A stretch of DNA of 64,000 nt, from assembly GCA_963667535.2 (NCBI GenBank), contig CAXXDU010000002.1:655243-719242 (forward strand), given 5' to 3'. Positions 3,978-64,000 of this stretch are shown piece by piece (position 1 is the first letter of the stretch; the number at the start of each line of letters is the position of its first letter). A program made the position numbers and the translations under genes. The notes beneath the pieces were generated by a model. It was not told the DNA's origin. It did not search any database and was given only the letters and a program-made list of their open reading frames with translations. The stretch is from Candidatus Cloacimonadaceae bacterium. Lineage in GTDB: Bacteria > Cloacimonadota > Cloacimonadia > Cloacimonadales > Cloacimonadaceae.

Positions 3978-4010
3978 GCAGACTCCCTGCAGACTCCCTG
4001 ATGACTCCCT
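3978..4010. repeat. 11-bp tandem repeat x3
   Basis: GCAGACTCCCT, GCAGACTCCCT, GATGACTCCCT. Related array at 50181-50224; both are preceded by CTCTTAAGA. Confidence 0.8.
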
Positions 4011-4237
4011 GCGTCAAACACAACACATATGGGGAACATAAGAGCAAGAAAAGGGACACTTGGCAGAATGCGATAATAGTTGATATTTATGTTGACTTCG
4101 TTTTTAGGATAGGTTTATTTGAAAATATAAGCAACGTTAAGGAAGTATTCTTGGGTCAGATGTATGCTGAATTATCTTTGGCAGATTGTTTATGGCATGC
4201 ACGTATTTCTTTTCGCTTAGTGCATGGAGGTAATGAT

Positions 4238-20786: not shown

Positions 20787-21198
20787 GCTTCCACCTGTAG
20801 GTAAATTTATGCATTTGAGTATTCAGAATATCTATATTCTCTTATCTGTCAATGAATTTAAACTACTCAATCTTTGCTGTATGTGTCTTGCCAATCAGCA
20901 CTTCAACTCTCTTCCAAACATTGTTTATGAAGCATTGCAAAAGATAGGGTAAAGATGTTTACTAAATATTACACAAGAGGTATTATGAATTGGTAAAAGT
21001 ACTATACTGTTGGTCAATATATCGACCCTAATAGCTCAGATATACGAGAATTTTGAACCAGAACCATAGAATGACGAAATGTGCCAGCTTGCTATTCAAG
21101 TATTTGTCCAAATAGAATCAGATATTTATCTTGCCTTTTTTTAGTACTTTGGTACATTGCATGCATTAACAATACTGAGACATCCAAAGGGAGAAATT

Positions 21199-35328: not shown

Positions 35329-36456
35329 TTATTCAAATATCCGGAGATATGCTCCGAATTTGTAAACTCTTTTCCAGTTCTTGCCGGTCATTTCTTCCAG
35401 AATACCCAATTTCTGAAAGTCATTGATTAAACCATAAGCAGATACGAGAGACAGAGAGGTAATTTCTGAAACATCAGCAGGGGTAACAACCGGCTTACTG
35501 AATAAGTAATTAAGCAGTTTCTGACCTGAGAGTAATTTTTTTCCCAGATTTGGCAATAACTCTGATTCGCAGATTTTCTTCAATTCCAGAATGTTTTTTA
35601 TGCCGTCTATAGCTTTTTGACAGGTTTGACTCACACCGATTAAGAAAAAAGCCAGCCAGCCATGCAAATCCTGAGCTGTTCTGGTTCTATTCAAATAGTC
35701 ATAGTATAGAGCCCGATTGGTTTCGAAATACTCTGATAAATACAAGGCAGGCTTGTTTATCAATCCATCGGAAATGAGATATAAAACAATCATTAATCTA
35801 CCGATTCTTCCGTTTCCATCCAGGAAAGGATGGATAGTTTCGAACTGGTAATGAGCAATGGCAATCTTGATTAAATGTGATAGACCGGTTTTTTCATTAT
35901 GCAGAAACTTTTCCAAATCACTCATCAGTCTTTCAACTTCATAACCCGGAGGTGGTACAAACATAGCGGTTTTAATAGTTGAGCCGCCAATCCAATTCTG
36001 GCTTTTACGATATTCTCCGGGGTTTTTATGCTCGCCTCTGACCCCTTGCAAAAGTATTCCGTGAGCATTTCTCAATAATCTGGTGGATAGAGGCAAAGTG
36101 CGAAGCATATTTATACTCTCATTCATCGCTTGTATATAGTTTTGAACTTCCTTCCAGTCGTCACGACGTTCAAAAGCAATGTTCATTTCCGATAGCATAG
36201 CTTCTTCCATGTTAGTTTTTGTGCCTTCGATTTTGCTGGACAACGTAGCTTCTTTAACTACGTGTAACATGATAAAGTGGTCAATATCGGGAACCAACTC
36301 ACTATAAGCCTTTAGCTCTCCCAGCTTGAGATTTGCAGTCTCATTTAATTGCATCAGTTCAGCATTCTCAAACCTGTAACAACGGTTTATTGTATTAGGT
36401 GTAAATGCTTGATAATCATCGATTTTAACATACTTGCCTGCATTGAAATCCTTCAT
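35329..36456 (-). CDS. Fic-family protein (class II, intramolecular inhibitory helix)
   Basis: Fic motif HPFLDGNGRIGR (aa 209-220, nt 35797-35832). N-terminal inhibitory motif SSKIEG ((S/T)xxxE(G/N)). C-terminal wHTH-like tail. Confidence 0.9.
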   Translation of the reverse strand: MKDFNAGKYVKIDDYQAFTPNTINRCYRFENAELMQLNETANLKLGELKAYSELVPDIDHFIMLHVVKEATLSSKIEGTKTNMEEAMLSEMNIAFERRDDWKEVQNYIQAMNESINMLRTLPLSTRLLRNAHGILLQGVRGEHKNPGEYRKSQNWIGGSTIKTAMFVPPPGYEVERLMSDLEKFLHNEKTGLSHLIKIAIAHYQFETIHPFLDGNGRIGRLMIVLYLISDGLINKPALYLSEYFETNRALYYDYLNRTRTAQDLHGWLAFFLIGVSQTCQKAIDGIKNILELKKICESELLPNLGKKLLSGQKLLNYLFSKPVVTPADVSEITSLSLVSAYGLINDFQKLGILEEMTGKNWKRVYKFGAYLRIFE

Positions 36457-36691: not shown

Positions 36692-38524
36692 TTACTTCAT
36701 CAGCAGCATTTTCCTGGTGATATTGATGTTCTTGCCCTGCATTTGGTACAGATAGATACCGGGGCTGACGTTCTTATCATGCTTATCTTTCCCGTTCCAG
36801 GTTGCATTATAGTGTCCGGCTGCTTTCATTTCATTGACGAGTGTTTTAACCAATTGTCCTTTCAGGTTATAGATATTGATGGTTACAGGCTGGTTTTCTT
36901 TAACGTCGTAAGCAATACTGGTTTCCCGATGGAACGGATTGGGATAGTTATTGAGCAGTTCTGAGCTGATGGCAGGAACTTCGGTTGGATTACTGACGCC
37001 ATCGATAAAATGGAAAGTGGTCTTGGGCATAGACTGATAAGCATGGTCCAGTGCAGGTGGCGAAGCGGGGTTAATGTCGTCGGTACTTCTGCCTGCTAAC
37101 AAAGAGCTATTATAGTCTGCCGAAGTCAATCCAAAGAATAAATTATTAGGACTATGTCCTGTATCAGACCCAGGCTTATACACCATTACGACTAAGTTTT
37201 GTCCTGAATAAGTAAACGGTGTGTCTAATGGTATGCAAATTACATGCTCTCCTGCCAGATAATTTACCGTACCATCAAAGACCTGAGTAAGCTGAGTGGA
37301 TGGTATCCAGGTAACAGGTAAACTATCCAGAACTGTGGTTCCCATCCAAATCCGGGTAGGCACATCAAAGACATTACCCCAGAAATGATTATAATATGAA
37401 ATGGCATTAATAGTGCCCAAATGATTAATTGCTGAAGCACGATACAGGATTTCTCCAAGACTTGAATATTCAAACACTATTGAGGGCTCTACGGTCAATT
37501 GCGTTGAATCAGCGAGAGTAACGGGTGTAGTCGAGGCAGGAAATACTGCCACGCTAATACTGTCTGTCACGTTATTTCCGGGGACTTCATCATTCAAACC
37601 AATAACTTCAGCGCGTAAAAGATGGGTACCGATAGTCGCAGGAGTCCAGGATAAAGAAGCGGTTGCATAGCCATCATTGGCAGCGATAGGAGGTCCTGTC
37701 GTCGTGGCAAGGACATTTGTGCCTTCCATCAGGTTAATTGTGTAATTATCGTCCGGAGCTGTGCCATGATTGTTTACTGTCACAGTTAATGTGCCGGCTT
37801 CATTCTGAACCAGAGATGGCGGACAGTTTATGGACTCTCCAATCAAATCATGAGCAGGTAACTGTGCCGGTAAAAACGAGAAAATCGTGTTTTCCCCCGG
37901 GTAGGTGCTATTACTATTGTAATTGTCAGTGCTGGATACAGTTAATGTGGGCAGCAATCTTACACTCAAATAATTTCCAACGCCTCCGGGCTCCATGTTT
38001 ATCCCGATACTGGCTCCTCTACCGCTGGAATCATCTCCGCCACCCGGTCCGTAACAAAAGTCTATCTGTCCTGATTCATATAATTTTACCTGAAAATCGT
38101 ATGCACTGGTCAAATAAGGATAGATACACCAGTTCATATCTGTGAATTGGACAGTAAATACCCGATTAGGCGCACTACCTGAAAGCACATACATACATTG
38201 AGTTGTAAACCGCCAATTATCCCATAACGGTGCTAGTATAGGATGATATACGTTGAAATTAAGATTATTACTGGAAAGATGATTTAACGCAAGATTGAAA
38301 TAAACGTAGCCGTAATAGCTTATCCTGAGCTGCGTATAGATATTTTCTCCATAATGAAATGGAAAGCCGATATCCACAGGATTGTTGATGGTGTCTACAA
38401 CTGTTCCGTTTATCGGAATATATGTTTGTATGCGGGATTGAAAAGTGTAATATTGATTGATATCAGCCGACAACGTCCCACATAACATAATCAAAAACAT
38501 AAGAAAAAGCAGCAATGCTTTCAT
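36692..38524 (-). CDS. Secreted protein with CARDB-like domain and T9SS sorting domain
   Basis: Signal peptide MKALLLFLMFLIMLCGTLSA after GGAGG. CARDB-like GTLTVTVNNHGTAPDDNYTINLMEG. C-terminus YPNPFHRETSIAYDV...INIYNLKGQLVKTL...PGIYLYQM. Confidence 0.8.
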   Translation of the reverse strand: MKALLLFLMFLIMLCGTLSADINQYYTFQSRIQTYIPINGTVVDTINNPVDIGFPFHYGENIYTQLRISYYGYVYFNLALNHLSSNNLNFNVYHPILAPLWDNWRFTTQCMYVLSGSAPNRVFTVQFTDMNWCIYPYLTSAYDFQVKLYESGQIDFCYGPGGGDDSSGRGASIGINMEPGGVGNYLSVRLLPTLTVSSTDNYNSNSTYPGENTIFSFLPAQLPAHDLIGESINCPPSLVQNEAGTLTVTVNNHGTAPDDNYTINLMEGTNVLATTTGPPIAANDGYATASLSWTPATIGTHLLRAEVIGLNDEVPGNNVTDSISVAVFPASTTPVTLADSTQLTVEPSIVFEYSSLGEILYRASAINHLGTINAISYYNHFWGNVFDVPTRIWMGTTVLDSLPVTWIPSTQLTQVFDGTVNYLAGEHVICIPLDTPFTYSGQNLVVMVYKPGSDTGHSPNNLFFGLTSADYNSSLLAGRSTDDINPASPPALDHAYQSMPKTTFHFIDGVSNPTEVPAISSELLNNYPNPFHRETSIAYDVKENQPVTINIYNLKGQLVKTLVNEMKAAGHYNATWNGKDKHDKNVSPGIYLYQMQGKNINITRKMLLMK

Positions 38525-38650
38525 GTGTCCTCCACTATTATAATCCTTCATTTACATTTGAGTTGGATACATATATTCGGAAGATAATACCAGGATAAAT
38601 CAAGATAAATCAAAATATACTGATTATAGATATTCTGTCAAAGTCTTTTT

Positions 38651-42226: not shown

Positions 42227-42349
42227 CTTTGAAAACCCGATAAATATTTGCAGATAAAATAAAACAATTTGAATATTAGTTTGATTCTCTTTCGGAATGG
42301 TTATTGCTATTTAAATATTTCCTATTCGATTCATATACGGAGGAAAGAA

Positions 42350-45181
42350 ATGGTCAAGCGAAGTATTATTTGGGTTTTAGTTTTGTTTTTCGTAACGGCG
42401 CTCTTTGCAGAAATCGGGACTGCAGAGACGATTTCCGACTTTACCAATTCCATCCAGTTTGGTGGTCGACAGGCTGTTTATGCTAATGGCGATACGATAC
42501 AACTGTGTTATGTAAAACATTTATCAATGTATCCGGTAACTGTCAATGGCGGACACACATATTTTGCTTCATCTTATGATGGGGGTCTGACTTTTCCAAT
42601 TAACAGGACAATTGGTGTTACACCGGATGGCGCACCTACTTTATGCAAAAGCGGACAGACCATCATTGTTACTTTTACCAGCGGTGGGTATTTATTTAGG
42701 GCAGTATCTAATGATAATGGGGTAACTTTTCATTATGAGCCCCCGTATCCTGAGCCGGAATTCCCCAATATTCCCGCCAGTGACAGATTACCCATAACGG
42801 ACATGCATGACGGTGAATTTCACAGCATATATGCCAACAAGGAATACACACCGGATTTTTATAAACTGGAAGAACCCTTTTCACAGTTTTACGGAAGGTT
42901 CACTGCTCATGACAAAACGAGCAATGACACACCTGCCTATTACTGGGGACCGGATGTAATTGAAGGCACTGTCAGAGTCAATGGTGATTTGTGGATTAAA
43001 CAATTGGGTGGAGGCACCAATAACGGCTGGCCCACGTTTAAGGGTCCAGTGTATGTTTCAGGTCAGATTCAATCATACAGCGGCACTCCGCCTTATTTGC
43101 AGGTATTCCGGGGAGATTATTTGGAACATGTTCCGGAAGTAGCGTTAAATCCGGAAATCACGCCAGCTAATATAACAACAATCGGACCGGCTGATAATGA
43201 CCCCAACCGGATCATGATGGTAACCGTTAATGGAAATTCTTATACAACCATGATTGGACAAATATTAACCACCGGAGTAGATACATTGTGGGTTTATACA
43301 GATTATCCTACCACAAGCGGAACACCACTTTATGCAAACGTTGTGCCGCATGTGGATACACTTTGGACAGTAGGTCCGGCAGGTGTTTGCAGTAATAACA
43401 CCATGAAGGTGAATTCCACACTTTGGATAAAGGGTAATTTCAGTGGTAAACAGGTATGGTATTCATCGGATAATGTATATCTGATTGATGATATCACGTT
43501 AAGCGGTACACCGGTGGGAGATTGTCCTGACGGCACTGTTTCCGTAAGCAGTTATAATGCCTTTGATAAAGTGGCTATTGTCTCCGGCAAAAACATCATC
43601 ATCAAATATGGTTACAAAGACCCGGTTACGAATATCAGAATGAAACCAAACTGCAATGATATCTGGATTTATGCCAGCCTTTATGCATTGGGAGAAGGTA
43701 ATGGAAATGTTCATGAAGATGGAGTCTTCACTTTTGAGTATCAGCATCCGCATCCCTCTGTTCCCGCTGTGACAATGGCTGATTCGCTCTTTGATAATAT
43801 CGATATGCATAGAAGACCTTTCCCTCAAACCGGTATAAGTCCCTGGCCCGGCAATATTGACTATCCCTATTACAATCCACTCTGGCCGGAAGGAAATCCA
43901 ACCATGGAGCGTGGTACAGTGCACGTTTGGGGCTCCATTACCCAGCGCAGACGCGGATTTATGCACAGAGGTTTAGCTGATGCAGATTACCCCAATCCAG
44001 TCGGTTCATGGAATCCTGCCATTGATTATTGTGGAGGTCCTGCCGGAAATGCTTACGCCGACCCTGTCTTGAATACCGTTTTTACTCCGGTAAACGCTGC
44101 CGGTGCTACCGGAGCAGGCGTAGGCTATAATAAGGATATCCACTTCGATTCCAGAATCAGAAGCGAAACCTTCGGTTTTAACCCCTGGAATTTTGGATTA
44201 ACGGTCGCCTATATCACAGAAACCGGAACCTGGCAGACGGAAACTGTAAAGTATGATAACATCGATATGGTAACCAAAGCTTATAACCGCAAAAATGCCC
44301 ATACCCTCTTCTCCGTTAATGACAGATTGTATCAGTATCAGAATAACGTGATTTCTGATTTCCCAATCCTGAATGAGCCTAAAGGCAATATCGTTCAGCT
44401 CAATCATCTGGATACAGAACATGCTTTGATTCAGATGCACGATAAAGACATAAATTTCTATAATTATTTAACAGCAACTCCGGATTCTATTCACGTGTTT
44501 TGCTTAGATTTGGATAATGGAGTGGCAGCTCCGGTTCTGGATAGCTATGTGCCTACGGAAATGAATGATATTGCTGTTTTGAATAATGGCTTAAAGATAT
44601 ATGCCCAAACCAATGACCTTGATGAAGTGGTCTTCTATTCAATCAATAGCAACAACCAAATGAGCCAGTTGTATACCTGGAATCCCAATCAACCTGCTCT
44701 GAATGGGGCAACTTACAATTTTTCCAGAGCAAGGCTGCATATCGTTCCTTCGGGGATTGATTCCTTTTATGTGTTTATCTGGGTGCCCTTTAATGTACTC
44801 AATAATCCCCTGCTCCCTATTTTAACTAATGGCACCATGTATATGGCGCGGGGTTCTTTAGCCAATACCGGCATTGACGATGATCAGTTGGTATCCATCC
44901 CTGAGCTGATACCATCAGTTTTCATTAGCCCCAATCCGTTCAGAAGCCTTACAACCCTTGCTGTAAATCTGCCCAAAAACAGTAATCTGGATATGAAAAT
45001 CTATAACATCAAAGGTGAACTGATTAAATCCTTCAAAAATGAATATAAGAACCTGGGAACGCATAAGCTGACCTGGGATGGAAGAGACAATCAAGGCAAG
45101 GCTGTATCCTCCGGTATTTACTATTACCGTTGCGAAACAGACAATAATCATCTGACGGGGAAAATGGTGTTGCTCAAATAA
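42350..45181 (+). CDS. Large secreted protein of unknown function with T9SS sorting domain
   Basis: Start ATG 42350 after GGAGG with signal peptide MVKRSIIWVLVLFFVTALFA. C-terminus ISPNPFRSLTTLAVNL...MKIYNIKGELIKSF...SGIYYYRC. Confidence 0.75.
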   Translation: MVKRSIIWVLVLFFVTALFAEIGTAETISDFTNSIQFGGRQAVYANGDTIQLCYVKHLSMYPVTVNGGHTYFASSYDGGLTFPINRTIGVTPDGAPTLCKSGQTIIVTFTSGGYLFRAVSNDNGVTFHYEPPYPEPEFPNIPASDRLPITDMHDGEFHSIYANKEYTPDFYKLEEPFSQFYGRFTAHDKTSNDTPAYYWGPDVIEGTVRVNGDLWIKQLGGGTNNGWPTFKGPVYVSGQIQSYSGTPPYLQVFRGDYLEHVPEVALNPEITPANITTIGPADNDPNRIMMVTVNGNSYTTMIGQILTTGVDTLWVYTDYPTTSGTPLYANVVPHVDTLWTVGPAGVCSNNTMKVNSTLWIKGNFSGKQVWYSSDNVYLIDDITLSGTPVGDCPDGTVSVSSYNAFDKVAIVSGKNIIIKYGYKDPVTNIRMKPNCNDIWIYASLYALGEGNGNVHEDGVFTFEYQHPHPSVPAVTMADSLFDNIDMHRRPFPQTGISPWPGNIDYPYYNPLWPEGNPTMERGTVHVWGSITQRRRGFMHRGLADADYPNPVGSWNPAIDYCGGPAGNAYADPVLNTVFTPVNAAGATGAGVGYNKDIHFDSRIRSETFGFNPWNFGLTVAYITETGTWQTETVKYDNIDMVTKAYNRKNAHTLFSVNDRLYQYQNNVISDFPILNEPKGNIVQLNHLDTEHALIQMHDKDINFYNYLTATPDSIHVFCLDLDNGVAAPVLDSYVPTEMNDIAVLNNGLKIYAQTNDLDEVVFYSINSNNQMSQLYTWNPNQPALNGATYNFSRARLHIVPSGIDSFYVFIWVPFNVLNNPLLPILTNGTMYMARGSLANTGIDDDQLVSIPELIPSVFISPNPFRSLTTLAVNLPKNSNLDMKIYNIKGELIKSFKNEYKNLGTHKLTWDGRDNQGKAVSSGIYYYRCETDNNHLTGKMVLLK

Positions 45182-52282: not shown

Positions 52283-53542
52283 CTAATCCGCTTTTCCGAT
52301 ATAGTGCCTAACTAAAGTGTAGAGATGGAACACTTCCTCATCAGGCAGACCGGTACCAAATGAATATATTCCTTGTGTGCTTTTAACAGAGATACCCTTG
52401 GCGCGGGAAAGTTTTTGCAGCCATGTAATCCAGACCGGGAGAGAAGCATAAGGAGCGGACAAACCTCCGGCTTTTACTTCTTTATCTTTGTTCAGGGTAG
52501 AATTATTCATAGCAGTAGTTATAGCTGTCTCTCTGGTGCCATAATCAATACCTACAATTTCGGCTTTAGTGATTTGTAGTGTCCTTTTCCAGAATGATGA
52601 AGTGTTTTCGATTGCTATACCTTGAGAATTTACTTTTATTACGGAAGTAATTTTTTTGGAAAGCAAAAAGGCTTTGATAACCTGAATTATTGGTAATAAC
52701 ACAAAGAACAAACCAATAAAACCCATGAAGAACATTGAAACAAATCTTGGAGTATTTGTTCTTTCAAAGAATGAGAACAGTGGAAAACCAAAGAAAAACA
52801 GGATTACTACCGGAATTACCAACACAATCAGATGAAACATAGAGAAGGCCGGTCCGGGAATACCTATTTGCAGAGTGCCATCACTTTCGACAACCTGGCA
52901 TCTCATCACTTCAGGCGGAATGGAAACCTCATCTGTCTTTTCGGTCAGATTGAGTTGTTCTTCCGTAACCGGTTCATCCGGTTTTACCATACTGGCATGA
53001 TCAGTAGTATAATCTTCCAGCGGAATATGCAGGAAATTGGATATTAACGCAGCCTGCCCATAAGACGTACCATAATTGTTGAAGCTACACATTGCAAGCT
53101 CTTTACTGCCATTCTCTGCTTTCAGGGATACGGGATAACTTGCCGGTGTGTCGGAATCTCCCGCAACGTATTTTATCGCTACGATTTTATAACTTTCCAG
53201 ATTATACTCAGCGCCACGCATGGGCTGGAGTAATCCCCAGGCAGTCCAGATGCGTTGTCTGGTTTTATCAATGGTAATCCAGTTACGTCCGAAAACCAAT
53301 CCGGTGCCTACAGCAGTAAAGACTAATCCCATTAAAAACAGGATAACCCAGCCAAACCAGGGTACTTCATTGGCATTGGAGAGCGGCACAATATGCATGG
53401 TGATCAGAAGCATAAAGATTCCGGCAAGAAAAAAAGGAATACCAAAACAACCGATACAACCACCACCCTTCTTAATCTCGAGCTTGTCAGGTGACGTCTG
53501 AAGGAACACAGCTTCATAAGTTTTCTTCATCATATCATTCAT
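52283..53542 (-). CDS. Hypothetical multi-pass membrane protein
   Basis: 419 aa with two pairs of TM helices, each followed by a soluble segment. Confidence 0.5.
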   Translation of the reverse strand: MNDMMKKTYEAVFLQTSPDKLEIKKGGGCIGCFGIPFFLAGIFMLLITMHIVPLSNANEVPWFGWVILFLMGLVFTAVGTGLVFGRNWITIDKTRQRIWTAWGLLQPMRGAEYNLESYKIVAIKYVAGDSDTPASYPVSLKAENGSKELAMCSFNNYGTSYGQAALISNFLHIPLEDYTTDHASMVKPDEPVTEEQLNLTEKTDEVSIPPEVMRCQVVESDGTLQIGIPGPAFSMFHLIVLVIPVVILFFFGFPLFSFFERTNTPRFVSMFFMGFIGLFFVLLPIIQVIKAFLLSKKITSVIKVNSQGIAIENTSSFWKRTLQITKAEIVGIDYGTRETAITTAMNNSTLNKDKEVKAGGLSAPYASLPVWITWLQKLSRAKGISVKSTQGIYSFGTGLPDEEVFHLYTLVRHYIGKAD

Positions 53543-55682: not shown

Positions 55683-55697
55683 TGGCACATACCTTGC
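55683..55697 (+). promoter_or_regulatory. Sigma-54 (-24/-12) type promoter of pilin-like gene 1
   Basis: TGGCACATACCTTGC matches TGGCAC-N5-TTGC with exact GG-N10-GC spacing, 85 nt upstream of the ATG. Confidence 0.6.
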
Positions 55698-55781: not shown

Positions 55782-56213
55782 ATGGGAACTCAACAAATTC
55801 TTTTAATCGTACTCAGCGTAATCATCGTCGGTGTAGCAATCGCCGTCGGTATCACAATGTTTAGCAACCAAGCTTACAATGGCAACCAACAGGCTGTCGC
55901 CAGTGAGCTTCAGAACTACGGTTCACAAGCAATTCAGTATTACAAGACACCAAAAAGCCAGGGTGGCGCAGGTCAGGATTCACTTGAAGTAACAGTTACC
56001 AAAGTAGCAACCTTCTTAGGTTTCACCGGAGCTAACGATAGTTTAACCTCAGATAACGGCGAATTCCGTGTAACAGGTGTTAGCGGAACAACTGTAACTC
56101 TTAAAGGCAAAGGCGTTGAACTCAAAGCTGCCAAGAATCCACTTGTAACAACCACAATCGCTTTAGCAGCCGGAACAATTACATCATCTGTATCTTCCGG
56201 TACAACATTCTAA
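55782..56213 (+). CDS. Pilin-like protein, paralogue 1 (non-canonical N-terminus)
   Basis: MGTQQILLIVLSVIIVGVAIAVGITMFSNQAYNGNQQAVASELQNY. This is a hydrophobic alpha1-like helix followed by an S/T/G/V-rich region. RBS AGGAG. Linked to GspF/GspE-like genes. Confidence 0.6.
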   Translation: MGTQQILLIVLSVIIVGVAIAVGITMFSNQAYNGNQQAVASELQNYGSQAIQYYKTPKSQGGAGQDSLEVTVTKVATFLGFTGANDSLTSDNGEFRVTGVSGTTVTLKGKGVELKAAKNPLVTTTIALAAGTITSSVSSGTTF

Positions 56214-56230
56214 GCTCATTGATACTCTAT

Positions 56231-56264
56231 ATGGGGAGACAGTAATGTCTCCCCATTTTTTTTT
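56231..56264 (+). terminator. Rho-independent terminator
   Basis: ATGGGGAGACA-GTAA-TGTCTCCCCAT followed by T8. Confidence 0.85.
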
Positions 56265-56628
56265 GACCGTATATTCCAAAAAACATTTTGCCTGCGAAGT
56301 CAGGCATGTTTTCGAATCTCAAAAGCTAACCTATACTTCGGAATGATGACACAGTGATTTAACCAGATCAAGTCCCAAGCGATTGAAAAAGGCGATATAC
56401 AATAGCACAATGAACAAAGGTTCTCAAAAATATCCTGTAGTAATTATTGATAATACTCATCATGCTGTGATGTAAAACAGTATCGCAACAACAAGATTAA
56501 TGTTATAAGTTTACAACACAAATGTGTGATTTAGTAGGCTAATCAGTAAAATGAATATGAATGCTATAGCTTATTATTATAATAAGATAGGCGCGAAATA
56601 TGTCGCTCAGAATAAATTACTACGAAAT

Positions 56629-56644
56629 TGGCCCAAGCCTTGCA
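56629..56644 (+). promoter_or_regulatory. Sigma-54 type promoter of pilin-like gene 2
   Basis: TGGCCCAAGCCTTGCA with correct GG/GC spacing. Confidence 0.5.
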
Positions 56645-56722
56645 TTATATTCTACTCGTAGTTTATACGATGTGATTAATTAACAAAAAGAAAAACCGAT
56701 AAGGTTAAAAAGGAGACTACTC

Positions 56723-57154
56723 ATGGGAACTCAACAAATTCTTTTAATTGTACTTAGCGTTATCATCGTCGGTGTAGCAATCGCCGTCGGCATCACAATG
56801 TTTAGTAACCAGGCTTACAATGGCAACCAACAGGCTGTTGCCAGTGAGCTTCAGAACTACGGTTCACAAGCAATTCAATATTTCAAAACCCCCAAAAGCC
56901 AGGGTGGCGCAGGTCAGGATTCTCTTGAAGTAACAGTTACCAAAGTTGCGACCTTCTTAGGTTTCACCGGAGCCAACGATAGTTTAACATCTGATAACGG
57001 CGAATTCCGTGTAACAGCAGTTAGCGGAACAACTGTAACTCTTAAAGGCAAAGGCGTTGAACTTAAAGCTGCCAAGAATCCAATTGTAACTACCACCGTA
57101 GCTTTAGCAGCCGGAACAATTACATCTGTTGTATCTTCCGGAACAACATTCTAA
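56723..57154 (+). CDS. Pilin-like protein, paralogue 2
   Basis: 6-7 aa differences from paralogue 1, with many synonymous DNA differences. Confidence 0.6.
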   Translation: MGTQQILLIVLSVIIVGVAIAVGITMFSNQAYNGNQQAVASELQNYGSQAIQYFKTPKSQGGAGQDSLEVTVTKVATFLGFTGANDSLTSDNGEFRVTAVSGTTVTLKGKGVELKAAKNPIVTTTVALAAGTITSVVSSGTTF

Positions 57155-57174
57155 GCTCATTGATACTCTATATG

Positions 57175-57202
57175 GGGAGACAGAAATGTCTCCCTTTTTT
57201 TT
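57175..57202 (+). terminator. Rho-independent terminator
   Basis: GGGAGACA-GAAA-TGTCTCCC followed by T8. Confidence 0.8.
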
Positions 57203-57459
57203 GTCTTCTTTTTGACATATTGGAATTCGTGAGTAAGACGAAAATTATCTTGATGCATGAATTAACCCATAAGGTAAAATCCAGTTGAATACAAGGTAGA
57301 TGATGTATAACTACAACACAAAGTAGGGGCTGTTGTCTTATATTTGCAACGGCGCCGCTTCTAAAAAGTTGAATAGCAGTAAACATAACATCTACGTAAA
57401 CTATATAATAGTAACATGATAAGCATGTAAAGTGTCAACAAATAAAAATAATATTATAT

Positions 57460-57474
57460 TGGCACATACCTTGC
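57460..57474 (+). promoter_or_regulatory. Sigma-54 type promoter of pilin-like gene 3
   Basis: Identical to 55683-55697 and part of the 578-bp duplication. Confidence 0.6.
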
Positions 57475-57558
57475 GTTATACACCATTTGAAGTTTATATG
57501 ATGTGTAACACAAAGAAAGAAATTAAAATACCAAAAAGGTAAAAAAAGGAGACTAATC

Positions 57559-57990
57559 ATGGGAACTCAACAAATTCTTTTAATCGTACTCAGCGTAATC
57601 ATCGTCGGTGTAGCAATCGCCGTCGGTATCACAATGTTTAGCAACCAAGCTTACAATGGCAACCAACAGGCTGTCGCCAGTGAGCTTCAGAACTACGGTT
57701 CACAAGCAATTCAGTATTACAAGACACCAAAAAGCCAGGGTGGCGCAGGTCAGGATTCACTTGAAGTAACAGTTACCAAAGTAGCAACCTTCTTAGGTTT
57801 CACCGGAGCTAACGATAGTTTAACCTCAGATAACGGCGAATTCCGTGTAACAGGTGTTAGCGGAACAACTGTAACTCTTAAAGGCAAAGGCGTTGAACTT
57901 AAAGCTGCCAAGAATCCACTTGTAACAACCACAATCGCTTTAGCAGCCGGAACAATTACATCATCTGTATCTTCCGGTACAACATTCTAA
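57559..57990 (+). CDS. Pilin-like protein, paralogue 3 (protein identical to paralogue 1)
   Basis: Identical 143-aa translation. One synonymous DNA difference (56123 C versus 57900 T). Confidence 0.6.
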   Translation: MGTQQILLIVLSVIIVGVAIAVGITMFSNQAYNGNQQAVASELQNYGSQAIQYYKTPKSQGGAGQDSLEVTVTKVATFLGFTGANDSLTSDNGEFRVTGVSGTTVTLKGKGVELKAAKNPLVTTTIALAAGTITSSVSSGTTF

Positions 57991-58007
57991 GCTCATTGAT
58001 ACTCTAT

Positions 58008-58033
58008 ATGGGGAGACAGTAATGTCTCCCCAT
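58008..58033 (+). terminator. Terminator hairpin whose T-tract is replaced 2 nt after the stem
   Basis: Same hairpin as 56231-56256, but followed by TTCTGTATAG instead of T8. The RAYT ATG lies 29 nt downstream. Confidence 0.4.
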
Positions 58034-58062
58034 TTCTGTATAGAGCAATAGCAGAAGGAACT

Positions 58063-58632
58063 ATGTGTCTAAAGCATGACGAATTTTATCCGGGGCAGTA
58101 TTATCATATGTATAACCATGCAGTGTCCGGGCAAATGTTATTTAGAGATCGCACAGATTTTGAAAATGCAGAAAAACTGATGACCAGATACTACTCCAGC
58201 AATGATTTTGAGCTAGTCGCTTATTGTCTTATGCCAAATCACTTCCATATGTTAATCAGCCAAAAGACAGATTTGCCTGCTTATACATTTATCTATAAAT
58301 GGAGTCGTGCATATTCCAGATATTTCAATACCAGACATCGTACTATCGGTACAATTTTTAGTGATAAGCTTCAATCTGTAAGTGTGAAAGATGAAAGTAA
58401 ACTGCTCAGACTATGTGCTTTTATTCACTCTAATCCTGTCAAAGCCCAAATGATATCAAACATTACTGACTGGGAATGGTCGAATTATTCTGAATGGACT
58501 AAACAAAACCAAGAAACGTTGTCAGAAAATTATCACAACCGCTATAATCTCAACACAAAACAAAAATATCAGGATTTTGTGAAAGACTTCACAACTGACT
58601 TCATGGACAAAGAATATTTAATTGACACTTAA
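58063..58632 (+). CDS. REP-associated tyrosine transposase (RAYT) / IS200-like Y1 HUH transposase
   Basis: AYCLMPNHFHMLI (HUH motif), catalytic-Tyr region WSRAYSRYFNTRH, and FIHSNPVKA...DWEWSNY. This is the pattern of COG1943/Y1_Tnp RAYT proteins. Confidence 0.8.
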   Translation: MCLKHDEFYPGQYYHMYNHAVSGQMLFRDRTDFENAEKLMTRYYSSNDFELVAYCLMPNHFHMLISQKTDLPAYTFIYKWSRAYSRYFNTRHRTIGTIFSDKLQSVSVKDESKLLRLCAFIHSNPVKAQMISNITDWEWSNYSEWTKQNQETLSENYHNRYNLNTKQKYQDFVKDFTTDFMDKEYLIDT

Positions 58633-58859
58633 GTATCTTTGCACAAAATTGTTTCTATAAGCGTTGCAAAAGCTGTTTCAGCGCAAATATTCTGAACATC
58701 AGGCTTTGTTATCTGTCCACATCAGCCGGACAGGAAAACGAGGTATTTGTGTTCATGATCATTGTGCATCGGAAACACCTTAAAGAGGTGATTGTATGGT
58801 GTATTCGATCGCGTAAAGAAAGAAGAAAATGCCGGCTTAGGTAAAAAGGGAGACAAGTT

Positions 58860-59291
58860 ATGGGAACTCAACAAATCCTTCTTCTCGTACTCAGCGTAAT
58901 CATCGTAGGAGTGTCAGTTTCTGTAGGTATCACAATGTTTGCAAACCAAGCGTATAATGCCAATCAACAGGGTGTTGCCAGTGAGCTTCAGAACTACGGT
59001 ATGTTATCCATACAATATTATAAAACCCCTAAGAGCCAGGGTGGGGCAGGCATGGACTCAACGGCTGTGACTGTAGCTAAAATTGCTCCTTTCTTAGGGT
59101 TTACAGGTCCTAACGACAGTGTTACATCTGATAATGGAGAATTTCGCATAATATCTATTACCGGAGCTATCCTGACTCTCAAAGGCAAAGGTGTTGAAAT
59201 GAAGAATGATAAATTTCCCTTAGTCACAACTACAGTTGGAATGGCGACTGGAACGGTCATATCTTCAGTTTCATCAGGAACAACTTTCTAA
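58860..59291 (+). CDS. Pilin-like protein, paralogue 4
   Basis: MGTQQILLLVLSVIIVGVSVSVGITMFANQAYNANQQGVASELQNY...SDNGEFRI...SSGTTF. Confidence 0.6.
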   Translation: MGTQQILLLVLSVIIVGVSVSVGITMFANQAYNANQQGVASELQNYGMLSIQYYKTPKSQGGAGMDSTAVTVAKIAPFLGFTGPNDSVTSDNGEFRIISITGAILTLKGKGVEMKNDKFPLVTTTVGMATGTVISSVSSGTTF

Positions 59292-59543
59292 ATCGGGTTT
59301 GGAATACCAGCGAGATAATAGATTTCCGTTTTCTGTTTGAACTCTTGTTCCAAATTATGAGACAAATGATGATAATTGAAAGCAAGAGTGTTACATTTGT
59401 AACAAAAAAACAATCCAAGCGATGTAGGTTTACAACATATAGGTTGTTAACACAGATTAAGAAAGAAGCGCATATTCGGCATTGAACAGTTGCCAGTAAA
59501 GGAACGAGGCTAAAAGTAAGCTATAATATTTTCTTCATAAAAT

Positions 59544-59558
59544 TGGAATAGTACTTGC
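59544..59558 (+). promoter_or_regulatory. Sigma-54 type promoter of pilin-like gene 5
   Basis: TGGAATAGTACTTGC with correct GG-N10-GC spacing, 66 nt upstream of the ATG. Confidence 0.5.
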
Positions 59559-59623
59559 CTATTACTATGATTGAAATATATTTTGGCTTTGAACAAATAC
59601 ATTTTTATTAGAAGGATGCAACG

Positions 59624-60058
59624 ATGGGAACACAACAAATATTACTTATAGTATTAGGAGTAATTATTGTCGGAGTAGCAATAGCTGTAGGTATTACCAT
59701 GTTTAATAACCAATCTTATAATTCAAACAAGCAAGCAGTATCATCAGAACTGACAAACTATGCAACCCTTTTAATCCAATATTGGAAGACACCCGCCAGC
59801 CTAGGTGGGGCAGGTGGCAGAATCGGAAATGTGACAGTTGCCAAAACTGCCGTATATCTAGGCTTCAAAGAATCAGAGCCCTATAACTTTGTTTCAGACA
59901 ATGGTGAATTCCGTGTAACAGGGGTTAATGGGACGATTGTTACGATGAAGGGGCTTGGAAAAGAACAGAAAGGCAATAATAAACCTCTTGTAAGCACAGC
60001 AGTTGACTTGTCTAATAGCGATATAACAACTACCGTGGGAAGTGCAACAGGCTTTTAG
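59624..60058 (+). CDS. Pilin-like protein, paralogue 5
   Basis: MGTQQILLIVLGVIIVGVAIAVGITMFNNQSYNSNKQAVSSELTNY...SDNGEFRV...GSATGF. Confidence 0.6.
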   Translation: MGTQQILLIVLGVIIVGVAIAVGITMFNNQSYNSNKQAVSSELTNYATLLIQYWKTPASLGGAGGRIGNVTVAKTAVYLGFKESEPYNFVSDNGEFRVTGVNGTIVTMKGLGKEQKGNNKPLVSTAVDLSNSDITTTVGSATGF

Positions 60059-60149
60059 CATGTTGGAAATCAATTTATTCCATTCAGATGTTAAAGCTTT
60101 TGAAGAGATAAAATACCAAAGGACCGGAAAGGTTCTTTAGGGAGAAACG

Positions 60150-60581
60150 ATGGGTACACAGCAAATATTGCTAATCGTTCTGGCAGTAATCATTGTCGGC
60201 GTAGCAATAGCAGTCGGAATTACAATGTTTAGCAGTCAGGCTTACAATTCAAACCGCCAGGCTGTCGCTTCAGAGCTTACCAATTATGCATCACAGGTAA
60301 TCCAGTTTTGGAAAACACCGGCAAGTTTAGGCGGTGGCGGTAACAGAACAGCAAACCTTACCGTAACAAAAATAGCAGATTATATAGCATTTAACGATAC
60401 AAATGACAGCATCACAAATGATAATGGGGAGTTCAGAGTTATAAGCGTAGCGGGTACAGTTGTGACGCTAAAAGGGCTGGGGACTGCGGAAAAAGGTGGT
60501 AACAAGCCGTTGATTACAACAACTGTTGATGTAGCCAGTAGTGCTATTTCAGCTACCGTTGGCAGCGGTGCCGGATTTTAA
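60150..60581 (+). CDS. Pilin-like protein, paralogue 6
   Basis: MGTQQILLIVLAVIIVGVAIAVGITMFSSQAYNSNRQAVASELTNY...NDNGEFRV...GSGAGF. Confidence 0.6.
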   Translation: MGTQQILLIVLAVIIVGVAIAVGITMFSSQAYNSNRQAVASELTNYASQVIQFWKTPASLGGGGNRTANLTVTKIADYIAFNDTNDSITNDNGEFRVISVAGTVVTLKGLGTAEKGGNKPLITTTVDVASSAISATVGSGAGF

Positions 60582-60662: not shown

Positions 60663-62000
60663 ATGATAAAAGAAATACGTTTCAAGGGAATTAGTCCACA
60701 AGGAAAACTTGTTCAGGGAATGTTTGCTGCCTCTACTAATAAGGAGATAAAACAGCATCTTCACAAATTAACAGAGCGGTATAAAATAAGATTGCAATCT
60801 ACCGAGTACAAAAAGGATTTCAATTATAAAGTCAAATTACCCATGAACAAGACATTCACAGGCAAACAATCAGCATTTTCCAAAGAGGAAGTGGCACAGG
60901 CTTTACAAAGAATGGGTCACAATGATTTTACAATAACACCTGTTTTGTTTGATATCAAGATGAAGCCCAGTGCCAATGATGTAATGATGTTTATCAAACT
61001 CAGTACCAATATGCTGAAAGACAAAATGAGCTTTGGAAAAATTCTGAGTATGTTGGCAGAAGAGCAGACGAATCGCTCAATGCGAGATGCTCTAATCCAG
61101 ATAGAGAATCAGTTGAAACAAGGTGCGGAAGGCAAAGACGTATTCATGCGGTTCAGTGATATTTTTGGCAAATTCCCGGCATTCATGCTTGGATTGGCAA
61201 CGAAAAGCGGTAATATGACAGAGATATTTGAGGCAACCAATAAGTTTATTGAACGTGATATGGAGATTAAAAAGAATGTTAAAAAAGCTGTAATCTCACC
61301 CATGTTCGCAGTGCTTGCCACGGTTGGAGCTGTAATTTATTATATCGTTAAAATCTTCCCTTCCACAGCTGAACTGTTTATCAAATATGATATGCCTCTG
61401 CCACCGATGACTGCTCAAACTTTAAAAATGAGTGACTGGTTGGGTGGAAACTGGTATTACCTCGTTGCTATCGTTGTGATACCTACCGTCGCTATATGGA
61501 GATGGTGGAAAACAGACAGCGGAAAAGTCTGGAAAGATAAAAACATGGTGAAGCTTCCCATGATTGGTCATTTGATACATAAGTCGAGCATAGAAATATT
61601 CTTTCGGGTATTTGGAACAATCTATTCAGGAGCCGGTGATAATATTGAAATTATTAGAACTGCTTCAGAGGCTTGCCGTAATTCATGGATGGAAAAGCAA
61701 ATCAAGCAAGTCACAATTCCATTGATGTTAAAAGAAGGTGAGGGTTTTTGTCCGGCCATGGAAGCATCGGGAGTGTTTACAAGAACAGCTTTAACCAGAT
61801 TGAAAACCGGCTCGGAAACCGGTAATATCCTTCAGGCAGCCCAACAGATAGCTTCATACTACGAAGCTGAAACAACCTATAAAATGAATGCGATGATAGA
61901 GTATATCCAGACCTTTGTGGGTCTGTTTATAGCCATTGTTATTAGCTGGCTAACCGTAGTATCAGCAGAAATTGCTACTGTATCTCCACCTGTAACTTAA
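60663..62000 (+). CDS. GspF/PilC-family inner-membrane platform protein
   Basis: 445 aa with two cytoplasmic helical domains, each followed by TM segments. FMLGLATKSGNMTEIFEATNKFIE and RTALTRLKTGSETGNILQAAQQIASYYE resemble the T2SSF repeats. Confidence 0.75.
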   Translation: MIKEIRFKGISPQGKLVQGMFAASTNKEIKQHLHKLTERYKIRLQSTEYKKDFNYKVKLPMNKTFTGKQSAFSKEEVAQALQRMGHNDFTITPVLFDIKMKPSANDVMMFIKLSTNMLKDKMSFGKILSMLAEEQTNRSMRDALIQIENQLKQGAEGKDVFMRFSDIFGKFPAFMLGLATKSGNMTEIFEATNKFIERDMEIKKNVKKAVISPMFAVLATVGAVIYYIVKIFPSTAELFIKYDMPLPPMTAQTLKMSDWLGGNWYYLVAIVVIPTVAIWRWWKTDSGKVWKDKNMVKLPMIGHLIHKSSIEIFFRVFGTIYSGAGDNIEIIRTASEACRNSWMEKQIKQVTIPLMLKEGEGFCPAMEASGVFTRTALTRLKTGSETGNILQAAQQIASYYEAETTYKMNAMIEYIQTFVGLFIAIVISWLTVVSAEIATVSPPVT

Positions 62001-62010
62001 GGATCAATAC

Positions 62011-63789
62011 ATGGCTGCGATGACGAAATTCGGCAACTACCTGGTTGAGAAGGGATACTTCGCTGAAGACTTTATGGAAAAAGTCACAACCAGATTGATG
62101 GAATATGGTGATTCTTCCCCCAGCGCTCTGGCAAAGCTGTTAATTGCTGAGTTTAAAGTTTCTCAGGATACCGTTTATGAAGCAATGTCACGCTTATATG
62201 CGTTTTCTACTTTTGACATTGACCCCGAATCAGTTGATAAAAACCAGATTGCCCAAACTAAAGAAATCCTGGCAAAGTTCCCTGACGAATTTAAGAAAAG
62301 ACTCTTCTTCCGCAAAATATTTCCTTTCCGGATTCAAAATACAGCCAGAGAAACACTCATGGTACTTGCAGCAGATCCCACAGAAAAGATGATGCAAGAG
62401 ATCCCTGTACTAACACCATACAAGCGGTTTGAAGTTTCCTGGTGCAAAGTAAAAACCATCGAAGACTTAATCCAGAAGATAGCGCCTCAAAAGAATGAAT
62501 TTTTGCAATTATTGGAAGAAGCAGGCGAAGTTATCGTCGAAATCGATAAAACAGATTCTGAGGTTAATGAACAGGCACTGGAAGATGAAATCAACAAAAG
62601 CCTTCTGGTCAATCTTTTTGAAGGAGCTTTGATAGAAGCAGTGCGCAAGGGCGCCAGTGATATACATATACTTGCAGCAGGCAAGGCAGAGGTTGATGTG
62701 TTTTTCAGGGTTGATGGCAGACTTACTCTTTGGCACCGGCAGGAAAACACTCCTCCTGAAGCTCTGACGGCAGTGGTTAAAGACCGCAGTATCGGAGTAG
62801 ATAGATTTGAGCGTGACACAGCTCAGGACGGTTTTGCTCAACGTTTAATTGATGAGCATCTGATACGGTTTAGAATATCAATATTACCTGTTGTGTCTGC
62901 TGAATATGAGAGACGGTTTGAAAGCGTTGTTATCCGTGTTATTGACGACAGAAATGTAATCGCTGATTTCCGAAAACTTGGTTTCCAGCAACAGGCAGAA
63001 CAAGAATTCCTCAAATCAATCAATACATCAAAGGGTATAATCATTGTAACAGGACCTACGGGTAGCGGAAAAAGTACGACACTTCTGGCTGCATTGCATC
63101 ATGTTATCAATCCATCTATAAACGTTCTGACTTGTGAAGATCCAGTTGAGTACGTTATTCATGGAGCCAGGCAGATAAAAATAGGGCACAAACTTTCTTT
63201 TGATCAGGCAATTCGTTCTATTTTGCGGCATGACCCTGATGTTGTTATGGTGGGTGAGATAAGAGATAAAATAACTGCTGATATAGCAGTTAAGCTGGCA
63301 AATACAGGCCACTTAACCTTTTCCACACTACATACAAATGATGCCCCCAGTGCGATAACAAGACTTTACAAAATGGGGATAGAACCATTTTTACTGGCAT
63401 ACTCTATAAATATAATCATTGCTCAGCGACTCGTTCGTAAGCTATGTGATGTCTGCAAGCGTCCTTTGATGAAAGAGCATTGGGCTGTAGCACACGAACT
63501 TGGGCTTACAGAAGAGGAACTGACTTCAGGTAAGATTTATGAACCTGTCGGTTGCCCCAAATGCCATAATGGATATAAAGGCAGGATAAATATTGCTGAG
63601 GCGTTGTATTTCTATCCTGAAATCAGGAGTGAAATTGTCACTGCGGGTTCAGATATTAACGAAGAGAACATTCGCGCCATAGCTGAAAAACACGGAATGT
63701 TGTCTATGCGTGCTTCCGGCGTGGAACGTATCAGAGAAGGACAAACCAGTCTGGAAGAAGTCGCATTTGCCACTTCAGGAGATGATTAA
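62011..63789 (+). CDS. GspE/PilB-family secretion or pilus-assembly ATPase
   Basis: Walker A GPTGSGKSTT, Asp box, Walker B VMVGEIRD, His box TGHLTFSTLHTNDA, and tetracysteine CDVC...CPKC. Confidence 0.9.
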   Translation: MAAMTKFGNYLVEKGYFAEDFMEKVTTRLMEYGDSSPSALAKLLIAEFKVSQDTVYEAMSRLYAFSTFDIDPESVDKNQIAQTKEILAKFPDEFKKRLFFRKIFPFRIQNTARETLMVLAADPTEKMMQEIPVLTPYKRFEVSWCKVKTIEDLIQKIAPQKNEFLQLLEEAGEVIVEIDKTDSEVNEQALEDEINKSLLVNLFEGALIEAVRKGASDIHILAAGKAEVDVFFRVDGRLTLWHRQENTPPEALTAVVKDRSIGVDRFERDTAQDGFAQRLIDEHLIRFRISILPVVSAEYERRFESVVIRVIDDRNVIADFRKLGFQQQAEQEFLKSINTSKGIIIVTGPTGSGKSTTLLAALHHVINPSINVLTCEDPVEYVIHGARQIKIGHKLSFDQAIRSILRHDPDVVMVGEIRDKITADIAVKLANTGHLTFSTLHTNDAPSAITRLYKMGIEPFLLAYSINIIIAQRLVRKLCDVCKRPLMKEHWAVAHELGLTEEELTSGKIYEPVGCPKCHNGYKGRINIAEALYFYPEIRSEIVTAGSDINEENIRAIAEKHGMLSMRASGVERIREGQTSLEEVAFATSGDD

Positions 63790-63999
63790 ATGAACATGCA
63801 AGAAATGGTTATGGCTCTTTTTGCAATAGTGTTCTTTACTACTATCGCTCTGGTTTACAGCCGCAGCATGTGGGATACAGCCGAAGCTTTGGATGACGGT
63901 TCCAAGGTGATTCAGGCAACTCATTTAGCGCATAGCAAGCTGGATGAAATTGATGCCAAACTGTTTAGCCATCAAATTGCGTTTAATGCTGTAATAAAT
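63790..63999 (+). CDS. Hypothetical protein with N-terminal hydrophobic helix (possible minor pilin-like; runs off the window)
   Basis: Not in the track because it is open at the edge. The ATG directly abuts the pilB-like stop. MNMQEMVMALFAIVFFTTIALVYSRSMWDTAEALDDG... Confidence 0.35.
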   Translation, partial: MNMQEMVMALFAIVFFTTIALVYSRSMWDTAEALDDGSKVIQATHLAHSKLDEIDAKLFSHQIAFNAVIN

Positions 64000-64000
64000 A

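Follow-up and report, generated by a model that had tools for sequence, protein, structure and literature searches.

The window analysed here is a stretch of 64,000 nucleotides (nt) of contig CAXXDU010000002.1 from a Candidatus Cloacimonadaceae bacterium, and coordinates given without a locus name are positions in this window. Six open reading frames (ORFs) on the + strand, of 143-144 amino acids (aa) and all beginning with MGTQQILL, are located toward its end (Table 1). The ORF listing of the window places them exactly where the initial annotation had described them, and they are treated below as candidate pilins that lack a leader peptide. The array is followed directly by genes for a GspF/PilC-like and a GspE/PilB-like protein, an assignment that is borne out by matches to PF00482 and PF00437. 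The ORF from position 63790, cut by the end of the window, starts with MNMQEMVMALFAIVFF and likewise has no leader, with Glu at absolute position 5.

Only the dipeptide Met-Gly precedes the hydrophobic core of the six proteins, in agreement with the first reading of the sequence. There is no earlier ATG, GTG or TTG start for any of the six copies (the longest possible frames were taken), and in-frame stop codons are located 3-5 codons upstream of copies 4-6. The class III leader, with a short basic segment, Gly at position -1 and a hydrophobic residue at +1, was looked for and not found. The cleavage/methylation motif of PF07963 and TIGR02532 (G-F-T-L-I-E) is also absent, and the precomputed Pfam annotation is empty ('-') for all 240 listed homologues. 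The residue at absolute position 5 is Gln rather than Glu. Because the leader, the N_methyl motif and Glu5 were each examined and found missing, these proteins are not filed under the pilins with class III signal peptides. None of the four paralogues tested has a Pfam or NCBIfam match at E values up to 0.1.

Copies 1-4 and 6 each have a ribosome-binding site of the GGAG type at a distance of 6-9 nt. For copy 5 no more than AAGGA is seen, and the earlier statement that every copy has its own AGGAG-type site does not extend to it. The head region of the six proteins consists to 47-53% of Ser, Thr, Gly and Val, with the DNGEFR motif, as had been noted. All six have no Cys and end with Phe; these two features describe the array but are not traits of the whole family.

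The family extends far beyond this array. A search of 5.8 billion proteins identified 794 homologues at 90% clustering. The best 120 of the 794 all begin with M[G/E]xQQ, the named ones being Candidatus Cloacimonetes, and the MGTQQ start is therefore not a chance pattern. An exhaustive profile search finds 1,623 clusters at 50% identity, almost all of them aligned from residue 1, and an Ignavibacteria-type member used as the query adds 4,802 further matches. Cultured carriers include Melioribacter roseus P3M-2 (MROS_0599; genome of 3,300,414 bp) and Rosettibacter firmus, and the family is also present in Melioribacter sp. OK-6-Me. The named members are labelled 'hypothetical protein' at NCBI and mostly so at JGI, where a minority carries the labels 'PilE' or 'PulG'.

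The N-terminus is the best conserved part of these proteins. Residues M1, G2, Q4 and Q5 are the same in every one of 99 unique sequences, which come from several phyla, and G17, G23 and F27 are 97-98% conserved. Among the 241 database members that start with MG, Q5 is found in 240, and 239 have no Lys or Arg in the first 26 residues. The mean conservation is 0.80 for residues 1-27, 0.51 for residues 28-55 and 0.37 for residues 56-143, a gradient that, as judged from the alignment, is the pilin pattern and the opposite of that of signal peptides or simple anchors. Of 107 family genes (from 82 loci), 102 have no possible start codon ahead of the Met of the MG start, and the possible extensions of the other five have no common sequence. 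Divergent members without Gly2 (MSTKE, MSNKQ, MSKKQ and MTLNQ) keep Gln or Glu at absolute position 5.

The operon encodes four pilin-like families, and all four lack a leader. The major pilin begins with MG[T/Q/S]QQ, in which Q4 and Q5 are invariant. The first family after PilB (144 aa) begins with M-x-x-x-[E/Q/D], and position 5 is Glu (29), Gln (17) or Asp (7) in 53/53 members. Its residue 2 is Asn in 32 members, Ser in 12, Gly in 6, Thr in 2 and His in 1, and most members have no Gly that is usable as a peptidase site. The second family (195 aa) has Asp at position 6 in 45/50 members, and the third (423 aa) begins with MG[R/K] in 36/36. In one genome (L036), the start MNLMEMVCV of the 144-aa family pairs position by position with the mature canonical sequence FTLIEVMTV. 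The simplest reading of these sequences is that Met1 would take the place of Phe1 and residue 5 (Gln, or Glu/Asp) that of Glu5. This equivalence had been suggested in the initial annotation, and it is supported by the acidic or Gln residue at absolute position 5 in every member of the 144-aa family, whatever its residue 2. A register set by Met aminopeptidase was also considered, in which the loss of Met at a small residue 2 would put an acidic residue at mature position 5 (MG giving G1...I5, MS-ILLD giving D5 and MN-MQE giving E5). It was rejected because position 5 is occupied by Glu, Asp or Gln whether residue 2 is Asn (32 members) or Ser, Thr or Gly (20 members).

The genetic linkage of the family was examined in 80 related loci, fetched with the PilB protein as the query. 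The family is found there in Cloacimonadota and in metagenome-assembled genomes labelled Ignavibacteria, Bacteroidota/Chitinophagales, Chlorobiaceae, Melioribacteraceae, Neomarinimicrobiota and Coatesbacteria. Directly upstream of PilC-PilB, 1-4 copies of the family are found in nearly all loci that have adjacent PilC-PilB genes and enough upstream sequence, and genes for PilT and a secretin are located downstream. Homologues without linkage to GspE/GspF genes had been named at the outset as an outcome that would speak against a pilin identity; the linkage to PilC/PilB is instead systematic, and it continues to PilT and the secretin. A compact arrangement, of the Melioribacter type, consists of two pilins, PilC, PilB, PilT, proteins of 517 and 295 aa, and a secretin.

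The identical operon is present on Logan contig L001, which extends beyond the end of the window. PilB is followed there by three small proteins with N-terminal hydrophobic helices (144, 195 and 423 aa), the largest of which has a weak Laminin_G_3 match. Further downstream are a PilS-like protein with six transmembrane (TM) segments (HisKA), a response regulator, a PilT-like ATPase, membrane proteins of 714 and 284 aa, a secretin and a hybrid histidine kinase. The PilT-like ATPase (a T2SSE protein of 403 aa) and the secretin (373 aa; PF00263, 3.3e-28) are found in most loci. The 714-aa and 284-aa proteins (L001 11118-13262 and 13329-14183) are encoded between PilT and the secretin; each contains a single TM segment, and counterparts are found in most loci. 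They share a homologous region of TM segment and coil, as detected by jackhmmer, and the larger one has a C-terminal CpoB-like domain of tetratricopeptide repeats. No PilM, PilN or PilO Pfam match was found in either protein, and together they may form a divergent alignment complex. There is no match to PF08334 (the T2SS_G pseudopilin), and PilT is present, unlike in type II secretion systems (T2SS). As far as gene content can tell, the operon is that of a type IVa pilus system, with no recognizable PilM/N/O and no prepilin peptidase.

Two regulatory genes of this operon have unusual domain contents. For the PilS-like protein (L001 8096-8986), the six-TM PilS domain and a weak HisKA match were found, and a HATPase_c match was not found. 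The response regulator (L001 8979-9848) has a weak cNMP-binding-like C-terminal domain; a sigma-54 activator domain was not detected in it, despite the sigma-54-type promoters of the pilin genes.

Table 1. Coordinates of the candidate pilin array, the machinery genes and the associated regulatory elements in the window.
Feature	Position	Strand	Description
Sigma-54-type -24/-12 element TGGCACATACCTTGC	55683-55697	+	perfect match, 85 nt upstream of copy 1; conserved in upstream alignment
Leaderless pilin-like copy 1	55782-56213	+	143 aa, MGTQQILL...
Intrinsic terminator after copy 1	56231-56256	+	11-bp stem, T-run
Sigma-54-type element upstream of copy 2	56629-56643	+	1 mismatch
Leaderless pilin-like copy 2	56723-57154	+	97% identity to copy 1
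Intrinsic terminator after copy 2	57174-57195	+	
Sigma-54-type element upstream of copy 3	57460-57474	+	perfect match, 85 nt upstream
Leaderless pilin-like copy 3	57559-57990	+	protein identical to copy 1
Intrinsic terminator after copy 3	58008-58033	+	
REP-associated tyrosine transposase (RAYT) / IS200-like gene	58063-58632	+	PF01797 7.6e-9; NF047646 1.5e-16, under cut-off
Leaderless pilin-like copy 4	58860-59291	+	75% identity to copy 1; in-frame stop 5 codons upstream
Weak sigma-54-like element upstream of copy 5	59544-59558	+	2 mismatches; window count at this level no better than chance
Leaderless pilin-like copy 5	59624-60058	+	144 aa; in-frame stop 4 codons upstream
Leaderless pilin-like copy 6	60150-60581	+	in-frame stop 3 codons upstream
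PilC/GspF-like inner-membrane platform protein	60663-62000	+	445 aa; PF00482 6.9e-25; PilC and GspF NCBIfam ~1e-34, under cut-offs
PilB/GspE-like assembly ATPase	62011-63789	+	592 aa; PF00437 1.8e-99; TIGR02538 2.2e-120, 403 bits (cut-off 676 bits)
Leaderless minor-pilin-like gene, 5' part	63790-64000	+	MNMQEMVMALFAIVFF, Glu at absolute position 5; 144 aa in full, cut by window end

The array had been described as six tandem paralogues. The number stands, but the copies are arranged as 3 + 3, with the RAYT/IS200-like gene between copies 3 and 4; this gene is not part of the pilus system, and the organism's Logan assembly is interrupted at it. Copies 4-6 have 56-75% identity to the rest of the array. 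Copies 1 and 3 are identical also over about 100 nt of upstream DNA, pointing to a recent event of duplication or gene conversion within the array.

A strong intrinsic terminator follows each of copies 1-3. A perfect TGGCAC-N5-TTGC element occurs just twice in the window, once upstream of copy 1 and once upstream of copy 3, and sigma-54-type elements with at most one mismatch are found upstream of 37 of 105 family genes, compared with 1% of random windows. An own sigma-54 promoter together with a terminator is the usual layout of pilA genes. Separate sigma-54-type promoters and terminators for several copies, together with the 56-75% identity, suggest alternative or differentially expressed major pilins.

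The organism has at least three more leaderless pilin paralogues outside the window, away from the operon. Off-operon paralogues are located at L085 3470-4665 and L086 10001-11014, one pair being beside ThrE-family genes, and one off-operon single copy is directly upstream of a gene with a TfoX_N domain. TfoX proteins are regulators of competence pili in other bacteria. The pilin-like module also occurs in other contexts (P0127, 462 aa; P0171, 504 aa; P0246, 517 aa; P0153, P0201 and P0205, 208-230 aa; P0129, 274 aa). Here the module (QQ(V/I)LL motif, helix and head) is located at the C-terminus of Ser/Thr protein kinases and zinc-ribbon membrane proteins, and a tandem double head is found as well. 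These proteins could be pilin-mimicking sensors.

The structure predicted by AlphaFold2 with the family alignment has a predicted local distance difference test (pLDDT) score of 89.9. It contains a long helix (residues 2-55), a short helix (residues 72-79) and five β-strands. The prediction for the head alone (residues 28-143) has a pLDDT score of 95.8 and shows the same elements. The predicted architecture is thus the 'lollipop' layout of pilins; a fold unrelated to pilins, which had been named beforehand as an outcome that would count against the assignment, was not what the models gave, although their match to solved pilins is not significant. Nor did the analysis show ordinary membrane-anchored proteins, the third outcome named beforehand. 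With the family profile, geopilin and Thermus PilA5 were found weakly among the Protein Data Bank (PDB) sequences (E about 1). The top match in this search, RavD (E 0.12), was judged to be spurious. The helix was also aligned by hhalign to a reference of eight canonical α1 sequences. The major-pilin family was aligned with a probability of 14% and a register of +3, and the 144-aa minor-pilin family with a probability of 2% and a register of 0 (residues 3-21 to 3-21). The helix is too low in complexity for alignment to fix the register. Based on the sequences and models, homology to known pilins is plausible, and the head appears to be a new variant.

A prepilin peptidase was not found at any of these loci. 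The Pfam scan of the window ORFs of at least 107 aa has no Peptidase_A24 match, in line with the initial annotation. A24 was not found in L001-L081, by a scan for the GxGD-K motif and by phmmer/tblastn with the sequence of Pseudomonas aeruginosa PilD as the query, nor in L001 and L082-L087, by the precomputed Pfam annotation of the gene calls. The window and the 87 related loci covered by these searches come to about 1.3 Mb, as distinct from whole genomes. The pilD gene is often clustered with pilB and pilC. In the genome paper of M. roseus, pilA and pilD are both given as 'not found' (PMC3534657). The presence of the leaderless family in this organism explains why pilA was reported as missing, and it fits a system that needs no PilD.

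The six genes probably encode filament subunits of a type IV pilus-like machine. The explanation favoured here for the genes' leaderless structure and its conservation, for the predicted pilin-like architecture and for the linkage to pilus genes goes further: the six genes would be leaderless major pilins of a type IVa pilus-like machine that needs no prepilin peptidase. The probability of this explanation as a whole is put at about 55%. On the sequence evidence, these proteins would be unlike every described type IV pilin in being made without a class III signal peptide, the translation start matching residue 1 of the mature protein. The subunits would insert with the N-terminus inside and the C-terminus outside (N-in/C-out), a topology that is supported by the fusion of the same helix and head to the C-terminus of Ser/Thr kinases. 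The PilB/PilC machine would then polymerise them, primed by the three minor-pilin-like proteins, with no proteolytic maturation. The N-terminus (Met1, perhaps formylated, or Gly after removal of Met) together with Gln5 would replace the pair of N-methyl-Phe1 and Glu5. More speculatively, an uncharged formyl-Met N-terminus would make the charge-neutralising Glu5 unnecessary, which would explain the invariant Gln5. The signal recognition particle's binding to very N-terminal signal sequences is known to block deformylase, but because the study stresses N-out proteins (PMC5454389), retention of the formyl group is uncertain here. A broader version, in which both major and minor pilins are leaderless and polymerised without prepilin peptidase in a whole lineage of type IV filaments of the FCB superphylum (Cloacimonadota, Ignavibacteria, Bacteroidota and relatives), with Met1, possibly formylated, and Gln5 in place of N-methyl-Phe1 and Glu5, is put forward tentatively, at somewhat below even odds.

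Several observations weigh against the peptidase-independent explanation. The major pilin has an invariant Gly2, which is what would be expected of the -1 Gly of a peptidase site, and Gly2 is also kept in the MG[R/K] family; the only feature on which prepilin peptidases are known to depend strictly is Gly at -1. Moreover, related Cloacimonadota contain a canonical cluster with a PF07963 prepilin (MLSKMKNQKG/FTLIEV, the slash marking the cleavage site), PilT, two canonical minor pilins, PilM, PilO and a secretin, and canonical and leaderless genes are located on the same contigs, for example those of 864,074 and 381,487 bp. Because canonical prepilins are encoded there, a prepilin peptidase is probably present somewhere in these cells and would be available to the candidate pilins. 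These pilins might then have a two-residue Met-Gly leader, cut by a peptidase encoded elsewhere (A24 or a distant analogue), with Thr, Gln or Ser3 as the mature start. The Ignavibacteria-type loci can be read in the same way, with a Gly-Gln pair in both the major pilin (MG/QQQ) and the first minor pilin (MxxG/Q). We consider such cleavage unlikely, however, as the first minor-pilin family in Cloacimonadota mostly lacks Gly2 (MNMMEM...; Asn in 32/53) and still keeps Glu, Asp or Gln at position 5, which fits an uncleaved register. Divergent major pilins that have lost Gly2 also keep Gln or Glu at position 5. In addition, pilD is reported as absent from the complete genome of M. roseus, which carries the family, and no A24 gene is found in the 87 loci.

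The comparisons with solved pilins count against the leaderless-pilin explanation as well. A Foldseek search of the PDB with the full-length and head models found nothing at E ≤ 0.001. The best pilin match, to the Streptococcus sanguinis minor pilin PilA, has E values of 0.35-1.6 and TM-scores of 0.26-0.43 over four chains. The hhalign probabilities are low (2-14%), and the registers differ between methods. There is also no Lys or Arg on the cytoplasmic side to fix the topology. The lack of significant structural or sequence matches and of Glu5 would suit single-pass, membrane-anchored periplasmic proteins with an accessory, sensory or adaptor function, the true pilin being encoded elsewhere. 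Orphan copies away from pilus genes, and copies of the helix and head at the C-terminus of Ser/Thr kinases and zinc-ribbon proteins, from which they could not be extracted into a filament, point in the same direction. This is nevertheless an improbable account of genes that stand, across phyla, where pilA would be expected, immediately upstream of PilC-PilB and in 1-6 tandem copies, and the compact M. roseus-type locus offers no other candidate for the major pilin. The extreme conservation of residues 1-27 is typical of a polymerisation helix rather than an anchor, the sigma-54 promoters and individual terminators resemble those of pilA genes, and a PilS-like six-TM sensor is encoded in the operon. 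It is very improbable that the helix is a Sec signal peptide, cut by signal peptidase I at an A-x-A motif in residues 19-21 so that a soluble protein, periplasmic or secreted, is set free. AIA and AVA are common at these positions, but the motif is not universal (AVV, MIL or LIS in some members), and canonical pilins carry the same AIA motif and are not known to be cleaved there. The positively charged n-region is absent, the hydrophobic run of about 22 residues is part of a single helix predicted to reach residue 55, and no other part of the protein is conserved as well as this segment, in contrast to the poor conservation of signal peptides.

No account of leaderless pilins, or of the N-terminal strings of this family, was found in the full-text literature, and the genome paper of Ignavibacterium album has no mention of pili. 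As far as the literature was searched, the family and its leaderless nature are undescribed. The prepilin peptidase is treated as a core and ancestral component of the type IV filament superfamily (PMC6668835), and the family described here runs counter to a trait that is taken as defining, since class III signal peptides and the prepilin peptidase are both regarded as core to every type IV filament system. The family breaking this rule is large, as the cluster count and the matches of the Ignavibacteria branch alone indicate. Detection models rest on profiles of canonical pilins and peptidases, Pfam and NCBIfam contain no model for the family, and current models and annotations miss these pilins. 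If the leaderless explanation is true, this would be the first peptidase-independent member of the superfamily and a natural experiment on what the leader, N-methylation and Glu5 are needed for. The cultured carriers M. roseus and R. firmus make the claim testable.

Other parts of the window have features of separate interest. A stretch of low GC content (0.31-0.33, compared with about 0.40 elsewhere) contains, at 29341-33156 (- strand), the gene for a protein of 1,271 aa in which SIR2_2 and STAND NTPase domains are found. This has the look of a defence-island gene; a Fic/DOC gene (35329-36456) is located near it. A 419-aa multi-pass membrane protein with no Pfam match is encoded at 52283-53542 (- strand), upstream of a DUF1722 / 2-thiouracil desulfurase gene. 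Four large proteins (4001-5857, 21157-23772, 36692-38551 and 42269-45181), with FG-GAP, Big_7, CARDB or FlgD_ig domains, carry Por_Secre_tail, the C-terminal sorting domain of type IX secretion. Cargo for type IX secretion is thus encoded in this organism, which is what would be expected of the FCB group.

The candidate pilins are most readily compared with the type IVa major pilins (PilA/PilE). Both have about 140 aa, a long N-terminal helix with a conserved hydrophobic first half, and a β-sheet head. The first half of the helix contains helix-breaking residues in both (G17 and G23 here, G14 and P22 in PilA). The genetic organization is similar as well, with tandem paralogues upstream of pilB/pilC, a sigma-54-type promoter and an own terminator, and a PilS-like sensor, PilT and a secretin in the cluster. 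In contrast, the basic leader, the GFTLIE motif and the disulphide-bonded C-terminal loop are absent here, residue 5 is Gln rather than Glu, and there is no A24 gene nearby.

The canonical type IVa pilus cluster of Cloacimonadota (pilA-pilT-minor pilins-pilMNOP-secretin; L036 and L082) belongs to the same phylum and adjoins, back to back, a paralogous module of PilC, PilB and leaderless minor pilins. It differs in having normal leaders, PF07963 matches, recognizable PilM and PilO, and no PilB/PilC of its own. This cluster is located at L036 1076-3723 (- strand) and L082 10001-18747, and also in L037, L083 and L084, divergent from the paralogous PilC-PilB module with its three leaderless minor-pilin-like genes. 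The two may together form a hybrid machine that mixes canonical and leaderless subunits.

The 'T2SS' of Bacteroidetes (Cytophaga hutchinsonii CHU_3191-3201) is derived from type IVa pili (PMC5553014, PMC6668835). It is similarly an FCB-group system with divergent components that branch with type IVa pili. Identity with it was rejected, as that cluster contains a PF08334 pseudopilin and a Peptidase_A24 (CHU_3197), and the system here has neither (PMC5553014).

Among the archaeal type IV pilins and archaellins, many lack Glu5, and some families have Gln next to the Gly of the cleavage site. To our knowledge, a class III signal peptide is present in all of them and is cut by PibD, FlaK or EppA. 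Archaeal systems have an ATPase and platform protein of the archaeal clade and no secretin, whereas PilB, PilC, PilT and the secretin here are like those of bacterial type IVa pili.

The e-pilins are recognized by about 9.8% aromatic residues and no aromatic gap longer than 40 residues. An e-pilin identity was rejected, as aromatic residues make up 6.3-7.6% of the six proteins and five of the six have a 48-residue aromatic gap. A part in direct electron transfer has been claimed for the pili of Cloacimonadota (PMC8892533), and the low aromatic content (6-8%) of the six pilins bears on the claims of syntrophy for this phylum. Finally, the locus of the MSH pili also lacks a peptidase gene, but its pilins keep their leaders and borrow the peptidase of another system (PMC6668835). 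In the candidate pilins described here, it is the leader itself that is missing.

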